A DNA stretch of 63,643 nt, the filler included, from Rhabdomonas costata (lineage: Eukaryota), in NCBI GenBank assembly GCA_019059605.1. It is 51 parts of 51 records of this genome, joined end to end, with 100 filler letters (N's around TTAATTAATTAA, not from the genome) between each part and the next. Parts side by side here need not be neighbours in the genome. Positions count along the whole stretch, not along the records: positions 39,998 to 41,147 come from JAHMHO010026178.1; 50 more parts are not named here. One strand, 5' to 3'. Of the stretch, positions 31,334 through 62,107 are shown piece by piece; position 1 is the stretch's first letter, and each line of letters starts with the position of its first letter. Under the pieces are notes generated by a model, which was not told the origin of the DNA, made no database searches, and saw only the letters and a list, made by a program, of their open reading frames with translations. A program made the position numbers and the translations under genes.

Positions 31334-31559
31334 CTCACAGCTAAAGTGGAGCTGTACCAGCTTCTGCAGCAGCAGACGGTTAATCGCGTTGTCGTCCACA
31401 ATCACCACCAGCAGCCCCGCAAACAGCGCCCGCGAGGACTCCTCGCTGCCCACACTCGCTCCGCCCTCCGCGGAAATCACCCCCGTAGCCTCTACCGTGG
31501 AGGGAAACCCTTCGGGAGAGACAGCTCTGGGGACCATGGCGTCCACGGTGGACAGTGTG
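31334..31559 (-). CDS. Exon with the N-terminus of a response-regulator receiver domain (likely hybrid histidine kinase)
   Basis: LLVVIVDDNAINRLLLQKLV motif; |gtgtgc donor. Confidence 0.85.
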
Positions 31560-38333: not shown

Positions 38334-38784
38334 CTGCGGCATACACAAACCGTAGGGGATCCCAACCACACTCACGCGGACTTGGGCTGACGCCAAACGC
38401 CCCGATTACAACCATTGCCTGACTGCGCACTACTTTTGAGGTTAAAAAGCAATCCGGCAAGGCAAAGCTGTTTGGTGGATAGCTCACATACTGACCAATG
38501 CACGCACGTGTGCTCGCAATGCACCCACAAAAATCAGAAAAACGCAGGAGTTGTGCGGATCATTTCAATCACTGTAAACAATGCGCGACCCCATTCACCC
38601 CAAGCACCGGACTCTTTGGAACAGGTTGGGGGGAACGAGGGGGAGGTNNNNNNNNNNNNNNNNNNNNNNNNNNNNNNNNNNNNNNNNNNNNTTAATTAAT
38701 TAANNNNNNNNNNNNNNNNNNNNNNNNNNNNNNNNNNNNNNNNNNNNGTGTTGGTGTGTTTGGGGGTGTGGCGAAGCCGAGTCA

Positions 38785-39897
38785 ATGACTGAAAAGTTGA
38801 AAGTCGCTCTGGAGAAGGCAGAAAAAGATGCATCTGACTGCAAAGCGGCGCGTGACGCGCTGTCCGTTGAACTTGAAGCCGCTGTAAAACAGACCCTGGA
38901 AGAGGTGGAGCAGCACAGGGTCACCCGAGACATGCTCTCAGCAAAGCTCGAAGCCTCTTTGATGAAAGCCGAGGAGGAAGCTCGACAATACAAAGTATCC
39001 CGTGACGAACTTTTGGTAGAGTGGGAAGCAGCGATGGTGAAAGCTGGCGAGGAGATTCTTCAACTTAAGGCGGTTCGGGACTTACTTTCCGCAGAATTGG
39101 AATCTACTCTGCTAACGGCCGAAGTGGAAGCGGAAAAGTGGCAATCTGTTGAAGCTTTTCTTGTGGAAAAACTGAGTGATGCAATGCGTGAAGTTGAAAA
39201 GCTGAATCGGTGCTGTGGCGAGGCCGATTTAGCAAGTGAGGACTTGAAGGCCGCGCTGGAGAAAGCAGAAAAAGATGCATCTGACTGCAAAGCGGCTCGC
39301 GACGCGTTATCCACCAAGCTGGAAGCTGCTGTCAAAATGTCAGAGGAGGAAATGCGGAAGCACAGGGCCGCTCAAGATTCCCTTTCCGCGGAGTTGGAAG
39401 CCGCGTCAGTGAGTGCCGAGGTTGAAGCTGAAAAGCGGAAATCTGTCGAAGCAATGTTCATGGAAAGATTGAGCTCAGCCCTTTGCGATGTGGACAAGCA
39501 AAAAGCTCATCTCGCAGAAGCGCAGCTTCTGATGTCTGCAGAGGTGGAATCAATGCAGAGAAAGCTTTCGGAGGAAGTTGAAAAGCACAGAGCTGCTGAG
39601 ACAATTCTTCAAACGAAATTGGAAGCCCTGTCAATTGCAAGTGCCGAACAGGCGCTGCGCAGCGAGGAGGCCTCTCAGGAGGCGCTTTCCGCTGTCATAG
39701 AAGCAGCTGCTAAGAAGGCACAGGAGGACGCACTACAGCACAAGGCCGTGCAGGACACGCTTTCCGCGAAGCTAGAAGCTGCCTTGAAAATAGCGGGGTC
39801 CTCCACTCCCGTCACCGACACCCGCAAGCCGGAGACCCATTCTTCTTCTTGCTCCAATTGTAAACTGGTAACCTCCGAACTTGAAAGAACCAAAACA
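38785..39897 (+). CDS. Long coiled-coil protein with internal repeats, partial
   Basis: Open for more than 370 codons, E/A/K/L-rich; LKxALEKAEKDASDCKAARDALS occurs twice and an (R/Q)DxLSxxLEA(A) sub-repeat recurs. Confidence 0.85.
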
Positions 39898-40142
39898 NNN
39901 NNNNNNNNNNNNNNNNNNNNNNNNNNNNNNNNNNNNNNNNNTTAATTAATTAANNNNNNNNNNNNNNNNNNNNNNNNNNNNNNNNNNNNNNNNNNNNGTT
40001 GGTTGGTGTCCGATTGCCTCTCCACTTTCCTTTTTCGCAGCAGAGAAACGAAGGCTCTAGGAGAGTAGTATAAACCCGATTCCTTCGTCTTTCAGGAACA
40101 GCTGCTCAATGACAGATCACAGAGAGAACAGCATCCTATGTC

Positions 40143-40204
40143 GTGAGCAACGGGTAGCTCGTTGGCTGACTGTGCCTTTCGGGCGCTCCATTGCTCACAG
40201 AGCA
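40143..40204 (+). ncRNA. Single-hairpin AGA-box (H/ACA-like) pseudouridylation guide RNA, copy 1
   Basis: Basal stem GTGAGCAA/TTGCTCAC, internal pocket, upper stem GCTCG/CGGGC; AGA follows the stem, 14 nt from the top of the pocket. Confidence 0.7.
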
Positions 40205-40482
40205 CGTTTTCCGAACAAGTCCGATTGCACGGCCACTTTCCTGCTTCGCCGAAGAGATAAGGGAGGGAGAATGGAAAGGAAGGATTTTGACGTTGTCTTC
40301 CCGACTCTTCGGTACCGGTTTTTCTGTGCAGTTTTTCTGCCGAGATTTGTGCATGGGGCGAGCTTTTATCGCTTTCTTCCCTTTTTTTTCAATGTTGGTG
40401 AGTCGTGGTTTGCGAGAGAGAGAGTGTGTGTGTGGGGGGGAGGGTGGTTGTAAAGAAACGAGAACTTTTACATTTCTTTGTG

Positions 40483-40544
40483 GTGAGCAACCTTGAACCC
40501 GTGGGCTGATTGTGGCCTCCGGGAGAAGCATTGCTCACAGAGCA
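40483..40544 (+). ncRNA. Single-hairpin AGA-box guide RNA, copy 2
   Basis: Same basal stem plus AGA; upper stem CCCG/CGGG; pocket CCTTGAA / AGAAGCA. Confidence 0.75.
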
Positions 40545-40949
40545 TGAATGTAAGCGAAAGTGCAAATACGGAAATGACAGGCTGATACTTTATGGGTGTT
40601 GTGTGGTTTCCTGTCTGTCGATGGAGCAGAATACTGGCTTAGCAGGAGAGTCCGCTCTGCATATCGGGAGATGTAGGGACCCAAGGAGGGCACATCAGAA
40701 AAAGGAAACACACTGCGGTATGGAAAATCGGACCTCATAAAAAGATCCGAGTAGATTTGTGGCTTGAAGTTGTGGATCACGGATCGCTTTTCTTTCTCGC
40801 GTCCTGTACAAAACCATCTGCGAAGGCATTTACATTTGGAGGTTGAGCAGAGCTGTCCCTTGACTTCCGGGTCTTTTTACGCCAATGTGTTTTCTCTCTC
40901 TCCCTTTTTCTTTTCGTTTGAATCGGGAGCGAACGGAAATCCGCCGCAG

Positions 40950-41012
40950 GTGAGCAGCATTGACCCCCGTGGGCTTCATGTTGCCTTCGAGAGAAGCGCT
41001 GCTCACAGAATG
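40950..41012 (+). ncRNA. Single-hairpin AGA-box guide RNA, copy 3
   Basis: Basal stem GTGAGCAGC/GCTGCTCAC (compensatory A-T to G-C change relative to copies 1 and 2) plus AGA. Confidence 0.7.
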
Positions 41013-43201
41013 TCGTAGGACAAGTATCGCGTCTGGCTTTAGCGAATCCTTGTTTCTCTGCAGCCTGCCTTGTCTCCGGCTGAAATTCGCTGGGCATGGG
41101 AATGCGCAAGCGCAGCACCGAACCACGAACGATTTCCCTGTGTGTGTNNNNNNNNNNNNNNNNNNNNNNNNNNNNNNNNNNNNNNNNNNNNTTAATTAAT
41201 TAANNNNNNNNNNNNNNNNNNNNNNNNNNNNNNNNNNNNNNNNNNNNGGTGGTGGTCATGGCCATTCCTGGTGGAGGTGGGGTTGGCATCCATCGCAATG
41301 GTGGTTGCTGTGGAGCGAGGGGCCTGTGCAAGTTGGGACCGAGCGACATCGTGATGACTGATGCTGGTGGTGTAAGGCCAATACCCCGATGTGGCAGATG
41401 TCCGAAGTGGAGGTCGCCGAGATGCCATGGTGGTGAAATTCCCGCTATGCCGTGATGCTGATGGTAGTGGTAAAATGCCCACTTCTACAGGGATTGGAAG
41501 TGAGAGGGGCAGCGGCCACCAGAGACGCAAATGGCGGTCTACGCGATGCTTCGATGCCCATCGCTACGTCACCTCCCGTTCACGGTATTCGCTACGGATA
41601 CGCCAAGGTCGGAAGGAAAGGTATCGACTGCAGTGACACGAATAGAAGATGCTGGTCGTTCCGGCCGCTGCGCTCCCACCTACTTCCTACCTCCTACTCC
41701 GCTAAGCTACGACCAAAATCGGCATTCCGATCGCGAGCATACTAATCCTCAAGACCCCATCCCCTAACCCCGCACAGGTTCACTGTCTACCGCCCTTAAT
41801 TCCCACAAAGAGCGTGCAGTGCGTGGGATGACGGAATATTGGTCCTCGTGCAAGGCAGAGATCGGGTATAGTGCAGGTTCTGCCCTCTGATCTGTGATCC
41901 TGCGGTTCCGGAGCGCTGCTGACTGCAATACTCCCCGCATGCCGTTCCATATCTGCCCAACACCCTCCCCAAGTTCCCCCGCCAGAAGAAGCTGCAAAAC
42001 CCAGGCCAACGGCCACGCACGAAAGGCAGCGAGGCGGCAGCGCCCACGTACACGTGCAACGAAAGGCATGACAAGAAGAGCGCCGCGGGAAGGTCTGGCC
42101 ATCGGGCCACACCATCCCAGCAAGAAGACACAGAGACAAGCGAAGACGCGGAGGCCAAACTCACCGCCCTGGCGGGAGCTTCCCCAAACAACGCCTGGTG
42201 TGCAGTTGAAAAGTACAACAAACGCACACACGCATACACACAGACGACTAGACTATGGGCTATGGGCTACAAACCACAAACGCACACCAAGACTTCTGAC
42301 AGCAAAGCTAACGAAGACTCAACATCGTAAACACGTAACAACAAGCTGCAAAACGCCAGAAGTACGGATTGTGAGCTCCCCAACCAACCCACAAACANNN
42401 NNNNNNNNNNNNNNNNNNNNNNNNNNNNNNNNNNNNNNNNNTTAATTAATTAANNNNNNNNNNNNNNNNNNNNNNNNNNNNNNNNNNNNNNNNNNNNGCT
42501 CCTCGGGGATCTTTTTTTTCGCTAGCACGGACAACGGCAGCTTCGAACGTAAGCAACACCACGGGGAGACCATAAACAAAGGAAAGAAAAAAAGAAAAAT
42601 GCAACTGGTAGCTTTTTCTCTCAAAGTGGGACAGCTGCAGACACCTGGAAACACGTGGCAGTCCCATTGCGTAAAACACTCCCATTGCAGAGCCTGCATT
42701 TTTTTTTGACTTGCTGCTTCCATGCCTGACGTGGGGTGGGGCGGGGTGGGGTTATTTTATAGACGTGAAAAAGTGGGTAAAGGATTCAGATAACAAGGAG
42801 ATTTGCTGAAAAAGACAAGCGGAGTGCATCTTTCATCTTGTTCTACCAAAGACACCTGACAAAATCGTCACCGGGCTTGTTCTGGCATGTGCAACGTTGT
42901 TGTTGACCGGTATCATTTTGTAAAATCCGGGACCGAAGAGAGCCCAAGGTTGCCCAATGTCTGGCACTTTGTGGCACAGCGCGTGGGGCCAGGGGAGCGA
43001 CGCGTGGGCCGTGATGGGCTCCTGTTGCACACGCTATGCAGGCTAAGGTGGAGGGAGGAGGACTGTTGGAAGGGCCGGGGGAGATTCCGGAGGTTCACGG
43101 TATGCGTAACCTTCCAATAAAAAAGGGACACCACGTTGTTTGCACTGCACCCCCTTCTTCCTCTTCTCCTCAGTTTCTTCTTGTCCAGTGCCCGCCAAAC
43201 A

Positions 43202-58644: not shown

Positions 58645-59995
58645 NNNNNNNNNNNNNNNNNNNNNNNNNNNNNNNNNNNNNNNNNNNNTTAATTAATTAA
58701 NNNNNNNNNNNNNNNNNNNNNNNNNNNNNNNNNNNNNNNNNNNNGGTTGGTGGTAAGAGCGAGGTTGCAAGCGACACCTCCGCTCAGGACGATGAGGCCG
58801 TGAATGCGGTGGACATCCCTCTAAATGTAGAATGAGATAGAGGCCCAGTGACTGGGATCCCGCGTGTATTGTAGAGTCAGTCCTCCGAAATGTTTTTGCT
58901 GCACTCCCCTCCCTTACACACTGGGTCGCTTTTGGCAGCCTCACTCTTACCACTCTTTGCCCTCCAGGAGTGTGCTTCCCCGCAGTTCTCTGTGAATGAG
59001 CTCTGGCTTTCCCTTTTTTATCCCTTTCTTGTTCCTTGTGTGTTGTTTGCTGTTTGCTATTCGCCGTGTGCACGTGGGTCTTTCACTGAACATTGGTGAC
59101 GCTGTGAATTGGTTTTGTTTTCAAAAAACCTAACAATAATATCCTAATAATCCTCAATGGTTATCTGTCATAGTTGCACTAGTTTTTCTCAGAAGCACCA
59201 CTTTCGGATGGAGAATTCCTAATTCTCGGGAATTTGCTGTGCGTGGGGGTGGGCATCGAATTTTGCTCCCCGTGACCTGCGACCGCGAATAGTTTTCATT
59301 AGGGGGGGGTTTCTTCAGTGCAACAGAGCGTACTGCCCATCACCCAAAAAGTATGAAGTTCGACTAGAAGAAAAAAGTTGAAAATTAAGCACAACAGAGA
59401 TGCGGTACATGCCTAATTAAACCCATATCATTGTTGTCATGTCCCAAGTGCTCGAGTTGGTAATCGACTTTAACTGTAAAGGGGGCCTTTCTCACCTCAC
59501 AGAGACTCGCTCGCAGCCAAAAGTCGCCCCCCGATGCGCAGAACGAGGTATGGAGCGCCCTCATCTTCCCTCTCCGCTCCATGGAAGCTCTCTCGCTAAT
59601 TGATCGAAGAACCGATCTTTGAGGGTAAATCCAACAGCCCGCTGCTCTCACAAAGCGCTAAAGACTCTTTTGGAGTCGTCCCCGATTTACTTTCCTTTGA
59701 TCCTTTTCAATGTGCTGATTTTGCCTTTCGTGATGCCTTCCTGTTCGGATTTGGTGCGTTGCACTTCCTTTTTCCTTTGCCTTACACACATGGCTCTTTT
59801 TAACCTAAATAGGACTTTTTGTGGTGCTGGCATTTGGTTAAAAAGAGCCATGTGTGTAAGGCAAAGGAAAAAGGAAGTGCAACGCACCAAACCNNNNNNN
59901 NNNNNNNNNNNNNNNNNNNNNNNNNNNNNNNNNNNNNTTAATTAATTAANNNNNNNNNNNNNNNNNNNNNNNNNNNNNNNNNNNNNNNNNNNNCC

Positions 59996-61959: not shown

Positions 61960-62107
61960 TATGTAATATATAACCTTATAACCGTATAAAAGACGCTCAT
62001 TTTTTGTGTTCTAGGTTCCTGAAATTTGAAAACTCACTTTACTCAATTTCAGGAACCTAGAACACAACATGAACATCTTTTATATGGTTACCAGGTAATA
62101 TAATGTA
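61960..62107. repeat. Internal AT-rich imperfect palindrome (MITE or foldback-like)
   Basis: Perfect 22-bp arms at 62005-62026 and 62045-62066, extended by about 40 bp of diverged arms (TAACCGTATAAAAGACGCTCAT / ATGAACATCTTTTATATGGTTA). Confidence 0.8.

Follow-up and report, generated by a model that had tools for sequence, protein, structure and literature searches.

Single-hairpin RNAs with an AGA box that guide pseudouridylation were reportedly described in Euglena gracilis by Russell, Schnare and Gray in 2004, and are said to occur there as isoforms and in gene clusters. The similar single-hairpin RNAs of Euglena are mentioned alongside the H/ACA-like RNAs of trypanosomatids, for which a consensus has been given: one hairpin of 57-91 nucleotides (nt), closed by a perfect basal stem (stem I) of 5-8 base pairs (bp) and encoded by clustered genes (PMC2613932). 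In that consensus the AGA box stands just past the hairpin and 3 nt short of the 3′ end, usually after 1-3 free bases; the base preceding stem I is usually A and never G; the 3′ strand of the internal-loop pocket, stem I and the spacer together measure 13-16 nt; a perfect upper stem (stem II) of 3-7 bp adjoins the pocket under an apical loop of at least 5 nt; and the pocket pairs with ribosomal RNA (rRNA) over 3-9 bp on each side of a uridine located 13-16 nt upstream of AGA (PMC2613932). Within the window, that is the whole 63,643-nt stretch of DNA from the euglenid Rhabdomonas costata that was analysed, three hairpins between positions 40143 and 41012 resemble these RNAs, and we consider them, with a probability of about 0.62 and judging from sequence, a candidate tandem family of euglenid single-hairpin AGA-box pseudouridine-guide RNAs.

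The window consists of 51 separate contigs of ~1145-1153 nt each, with 50 linkers of 100 nt (N44-TTAATTAATTAA-N44) between them. Since the remaining 50 contigs are unlinked DNA from the same assembly, the genomic context of the hairpins is the contig 39998-41147 alone, the GC content of which is 0.50. All three elements are read on the plus strand and are 62-63 nt long. Copy 1 occupies 40143-40204, where stem I is formed by 40143-40150 and 40191-40198 and is followed by AGA at 40199-40201 and a 3-nt tail (40202-40204); its upper stem (40157-40161 with 40180-40184) rises between a 5′ pocket strand CGGGUA (40151-40156) and a 3′ pocket strand GCUCCA (40185-40190). Copy 2 occupies 40483-40544, with stem I at 40483-40490/40531-40538, AGA at 40539-40541 and tail at 40542-40544, and its upper stem (40498-40501/40520-40523) separates the pocket strands CCUUGAA (40491-40497) and AGAAGCA (40524-40530). 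In copy 3 (40950-41012) stem I can be drawn at 40950-40958/40998-41006, AGA lies at 41007-41009 and the tail at 41010-41012, while the pocket strands AUUGACC (40959-40965) and AGAAGC (40992-40997) flank an upper stem (40966-40969/40988-40991) that contains one C·A mismatch.

The basal stem GUGAGCAA/UUGCUCAC, 8 bp in length, is common to all copies, and AGA directly abuts its 3′ side in each of the three. Every copy has, beyond this, an upper stem and an apical loop (6-8 nt), and the pocket would be made up of two internal-loop strands, each 6-7 nt long; the upper stem of copy 2 reads CCCG.GGGC / GCCU.CGGG, and the distance from the top of the pocket to AGA is 14, 15 and 15 nt in copies 1, 2 and 3, respectively. 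Minimum free energies (MFE), in the same order, amount to -28.8, -27.9 and -26.2 kcal/mol, corresponding to z scores of -2.81, -3.50 and -3.08, and only 3, 1 and 1 out of 200 shuffled sequences fold equally well. A covariance model made from the three copies (R1) scores them at 76.7, 87.9 and 80.0 bits, and as the top unrelated match in the 63.6 kb window reaches 14.5 bits, the hairpin family is real and local. The initial annotation, which had proposed three elements of ~62 nt with a basal stem, a bipartite pocket, an upper stem and an AGA box, is confirmed on these points.

The same annotation had assigned the elements to the guide architecture of Euglena and trypanosomatids, and their dimensions agree with the consensus as it is set out for trypanosomatids, namely in overall length, stem I, the AGA box, the apical loop, the distance between pocket and AGA, and clustering (PMC2613932). 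The Euglena gracilis guides, to which the copies are likened by description only, come from the same lineage, Euglenida, and share one hairpin, an AGA box, a small size and a clustered arrangement; they differ in that the host here is another, heterotrophic euglenid and its guides are candidates predicted from sequence. Guides of this type are a known kind of gene that is expected in a euglenid and not yet described in R. costata, and the word "snoRNA" (small nucleolar RNA) has 0 occurrences in the main text of the genome paper of this organism (PMC8219788). If the assignment is true, primarily heterotrophic euglenids would have in these hairpins their first candidate pseudouridine-guide RNAs.

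One indication of a guide function comes from copy 2. For target scans, stand-in rRNA was taken from eukaryotic ribosomal DNA (rDNA) that lies in bacterial genome records and was fetched with a trypanosomatid 18S primer (primer use: PMC10689643); in three of these records (L002-L004) the small subunit (SSU), 5.8S and large subunit (LSU) rRNAs were recognized by Rfam. The records concerned (L001-L004 and L240) are titled as bacterial genomes or metagenome-assembled genomes and hold complete or partial eukaryotic rDNA, i.e., they are contaminant contigs in prokaryotic bins. In all three SSU stand-ins the pocket of copy 2 pairs with positions 28-33 (AUGCUU) and 36-42 (UUCAAGG), giving 6+7 = 13 Watson-Crick pairs and no G·U pair. 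The stretch AUGCUU-GU-UUCAAGG is also present in two further SSU fragments, of which L240 was retrieved with a longer, SSU-anchored pattern. With a gap of 2 nt between the paired segments, one of 400 pocket shuffles scores equally, and among the other native hairpins of the window that have an 8-bp stem (n = 112) there are at most 11 Watson-Crick pairs; when G·U pairs are counted at half weight, two native hairpins equal copy 2 at a score of 13.0. The complementarity of copy 2 to the 5′ region of SSU rRNA is real and unusual, and the 5′ hairpin of this molecule is a plausible target of copy 2.

The target GCUUG-UUU-CAAGG presumably corresponds to the stretch of human 18S rRNA with pseudouridines 34 and 36, and in humans these two positions are served by H/ACA RNAs of two hairpins. 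The same target stretch as that predicted for copy 2 would then be addressed by two-hairpin guides in one case and by a single hairpin in the other. Both modifications of human 18S rRNA are documented (PMC3035437). If the reading of copy 2 is true, a modified site is predicted in the SSU rRNA 5′ hairpin, in the stretch that presumably corresponds to that of the human pseudouridines.

Copy 3 has a moderate candidate site, CGCUU-UU-GGUCGGUG, at U1563 of the L003 SSU rRNA, in which the unpaired dinucleotide is the canonical U-U and the flanks provide 5+8 pairs, including two G·U; 6 of 300 and 21 of 400 shuffles score equally. The summed score of the three candidate guides exceeds that of all 400 shuffles, driven by copy 2, and decoy rRNAs (reversed, complemented and antisense) score lower.

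The distribution of changes among the copies is also informative. Variable columns make up 11/15 of the pocket strands, 5/10 of the loop, 5/16 of stem II, 2/16 of stem I and 0/3 of the AGA box, so that pockets vary more than stems and box taken together (11/15 against 7/35, Fisher p = 0.0008); the difference between pockets and loop is not significant (p = 0.40). Copies 2 and 3 differ at 4 of the 15 pocket columns, and copies 1 and 2 at 9. The sole change in the 16 columns of stem I is one compensatory pair, A-U to G-C at the top of the stem in copy 3, and it is the only one of the 16 stem pairs to be changed on both sides; the upper stem has two pairs altered on a single side and two that are lost in one of the copies. 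The earlier claim of compensatory changes in both stems therefore holds for the basal stem, through this one pair, and fails for the upper stem. The suggestion that copy 1 was retargeted after duplication is supported in part, by the divergence of its pocket from that of copy 2, but not by a convincing rRNA target, as detailed below. If the guide assignment is true, the cluster would capture an ongoing process in which copies arise by tandem duplication and their pockets then diverge.

In the mechanism that we propose, the array would be transcribed as a single precursor, from which RNAs of ~62 nt would be trimmed, each with its end 3 nt past AGA. The basal stem and the AGA box would then recruit the Cbf5/Nop10/Gar1/Nhp2 pseudouridine synthase complex, the internal-loop strands would pair with rRNA around a uridine ~14-15 nt upstream of AGA, and Cbf5 would isomerize this uridine. 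Copy 2 would act on the SSU hairpin 28-42, with U35 or U36 (stand-in numbering) as the likely target, and copy 3 possibly on the 3′ major domain of SSU rRNA.

A number of observations weigh against the guide reading. Compared with the trypanosomatid consensus, the copies have no spacer between stem I and AGA. The base before stem I, which is C in copy 1, is G in copies 2 and 3 and not the expected A, although it is judged here by the trypanosomatid and not by a euglenid consensus. Stem II counts 5 bp in copy 1 (one of them G·U) and 4 bp in copy 2, whereas in copy 3 the C·A mismatch falls at its second pair, beside the pocket, and the stem I of this copy could reach 9 bp, a length reported as not tolerated in T. 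brucei (PMC2613932). The target scans, moreover, were run on rRNAs other than R. costata's own. Even there, the initial annotation, which had expected copy 2 to pair with AUGCUU-NN-UUCAAGG of the SSU 5′ region, was right on the pairing, but the geometry is not canonical: the unpaired target bases are G34-U35 (GU in all five SSU sequences fetched), and because the first of them is G, the canonical arrangement of pseudouridine followed by any nucleotide is not attained. When U is required at the first unpaired position, the best score of copy 2 falls to 8.5 and is equalled by 208 of 300 shuffles. A uridine would come to lie ~14-15 nt from AGA in either of two registers, with U35 after a G·G mismatch or with U36 and an additional U35-A pair. 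The copy 3 site has 8 Watson-Crick pairs, which is inside the background of native hairpins, and the best site of copy 1 has five G·U and 7 Watson-Crick pairs, again at background level and not significant (equalled by 21/300 and 121/400 shuffles). Covariation of the stems is weak and, with three sequences, not significant, since 286 of 500 shuffles do equally well. Three added pairs are possible across the pocket (columns 10-47, 11-46 and 12-45), both sides of which differ when copy 1 is compared with the other two; when they are counted, four pairs covary and 22 of 500 shuffles equal this (13/500 by covariation score), and the MFE folds partly close the pocket by pairing its strands. The cross-pocket covariation may reflect targets that are themselves hairpins, or else a near-continuous hairpin without an open pocket. 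Finally, this fragment of a cluster differs from trypanosomatid ones in lacking box C/D genes and any Rfam match: no box C/D snoRNA gene was found in a scan of both strands of contig 39998-41147, Rfam gave 0 matches in the whole window at gathering score, and at E values up to 10 it gave three irrelevant weak matches in the contig.

An alternative reading denies the copies any guide role and takes them for a structured small RNA or simply for a near-continuous hairpin that is repeated; a Cbf5-independent "AGA-like" RNA and an snR30-like chaperone that binds the SSU 5′ hairpin without modifying it are variants of this idea. T. brucei is described as having AGA-like RNAs with H/ACA-like features and no dependence on Cbf5 (PMC2613932), and the pairing of copy 2 is non-canonical, with its unpaired G-U and two guide bases left free beside the upper stem. 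The covariation between pocket strands and the want of strong targets for copies 1 and 3 point the same way. On the other hand, the distance of 14-15 nt between pocket and AGA is exactly that of catalytic guides, the candidate site of copy 3 is a canonical U-U, and the ability of the copy 2 pocket strands to pair with each other is explained by their target, because the target is the small hairpin CUUG-UUU-CAAG, strands complementary to which must be complementary to each other. We regard a non-guide RNA as rather unlikely. The strand itself is not assignable by folding alone, because folds of the minus strand are no less stable (z -2.5 to -5.1), and an RNA read from it would have an ACA box 1 nt past the stem in copies 1 and 2. 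Copy 3, however, has no ACA, while the plus strand has AGA in every copy and is the only strand with a conserved 3′ box. Minus-strand pockets would run in the sense of rRNA, hairpins of this strand attain 9 Watson-Crick pairs on the sense rRNA, and the plus-strand pockets score 10.5, 13.0 and 12.0 on sense rRNA against 9.5, 11.5 and 10.0 on the antisense. A minus-strand ACA-box hairpin is therefore extremely improbable.

As the host is a euglenid, introns deserve weight as an explanation too. The elements could be tiny GT...AG introns of the conventional or intermediate type, or introner-like or miniature inverted-repeat transposable element (MITE)-like insertions, within a euglenid transcript, and their removal would fall to the spliceosome and/or to the nonconventional-intron pathway, which uses pairing of the intron ends. 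Each copy starts with GTGAG, ends with CACAG and is followed by the purine A, with GT-AG spans of 58, 58 and 59 nt. Within stem I, +4, +5 and +6 (AGC) are paired with -8, -7 and -6 (GCT), and +1 is G. Among the features of euglenid nonconventional introns, pairing of +4..+6 with -8..-6 is named as the best conserved; a purine is also described both where the intron begins and at the base that opens the next exon, and a MITE-like origin has been proposed for such introns (PMC4770533). R. costata, in turn, is reported to be intron-rich, with conventional and some nonconventional introns (PMC8219788), and one frame stays open over ~185 codons once elements 1 and 2 are taken out. The copies thus resemble nonconventional and intermediate introns, as portrayed in PMC4770533, in end-pairing register, GT...AG borders, the following purine and in being some tens of bases long. 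Any stem directly adjoining AGA, however, yields the intron register automatically, so that the register does not discriminate between guide and intron. The open frame runs across a (GA)n(GT)n microsatellite, and two of the three spacer frames are nearly open anyway. Pfam gave no match, and the 93-amino-acid peptide of the would-be exon 2 has 0 matches among 1.84 billion representatives; neither a host gene nor coding exons were detected around the elements. The elements lack the CAG/CTG motif that is usual in nonconventional introns, and an intron would leave unexplained the conserved upper stem, the hypervariable loops that flank it and the 13-pair SSU match, all of which set the elements apart from such introns. 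The elements have a terminal inverted repeat of 8 bp, as a MITE would, but neither a target-site duplication in their flanks nor dispersed copies in the other 50 contigs. An intronic or insertional nature is clearly unlikely on this balance. Very unlikely, in turn, is the idea that the hairpins are "true intermediate" mini-introns or introner-like elements, or, more boldly, that AGA-box guides and nonconventional introns share an origin or a mode of recognition.

The candidate guide family sits in flanks that retain a trace of its duplication. The spacers between the copies, 279 and 405 nt long, had been called unrelated, and this is mostly so, as they are for the greater part unalignable; the exception is a plus-strand segment of 39 nt (40219-40257, family D3), which begins 15 nt downstream of copy 1 and recurs with 79% identity at 40008-40046, also on the plus strand, at the 5′ edge of the contig. 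The segment at 40219-40257 shows no stable fold (z +1.08). Its recurrence implies that the tandemly duplicated unit behind the array extended past the hairpin itself, and another hairpin copy probably lies just beyond the 5′ end of the contig. The spacer between copies 1 and 2 also contains, at 40410-40447, the compound microsatellite, which consists of (GA)n(GT)n and leads into a run of G.

No R1 copy was found in the other 50 contigs of the window. Searches beyond the window returned chance matches: the pattern GTGAGCARC-N34-48-YTGCTCACAGA hits 71 metagenome loci and 44 genome loci, which are attributed to chance because their R1 scores do not exceed 29.8 bits (metagenome) and 27.9 bits (genome) compared with 77-88 bits for the copies, and the pattern ATATGCTTNNTTCAAGG, with at least 120 loci, is unspecific. 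A search of literature full text for the stem motif returned unrelated papers only. Two other AGA-flanked hairpins of the window lie on the minus strand, at 31488-31549 and at 504-570. The latter has an 8-bp GC stem CCGCCGCC/GGCGGCGG followed by AGAGAG and folds with z -3.3, and its rRNA complementarity (score 10.0) is at background level; it is possibly a further AGA-flanked hairpin RNA, or a product of chance.

As to the remainder of the window, a scan for transfer RNA genes found none, and Rfam at E values up to 0.5 reported only palindromes resembling microRNA precursors. These are the long palindromic hairpins at 61971-62098 and 59743-59899, where several microRNA-precursor models matched on both strands, far under gathering score. 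An open frame running from end to end, in any frame, is present in 2 of the 51 contigs, which fits a gene-poor or intron-rich eukaryote and not a trypanosomatid. The contig next to the hairpins in the window contains a coiled-coil open reading frame that spans its entire length (38749-39897, plus strand) and matches, with 100% identity across 98% of its length, the EukProt entries RCo007200 (1154 amino acids) and RCo007202 (1032 amino acids); the RCo identifiers denote proteins of R. costata, a heterotrophic euglenid (PMC8219788). The hairpin contig, a separate one, is linked to this match by belonging to the same assembly and by a similar GC content. The contig at 57495-58644, with a GC content of 26%, has on the minus strand a single open frame of 383 amino acids with a weak match to the helicase domain UvrD_C_2. 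Relatives, at 38-76% identity, come from metagenome sources only, and the contig is probably foreign to the euglenid nuclear genome, being of bacterial, organellar or viral origin.

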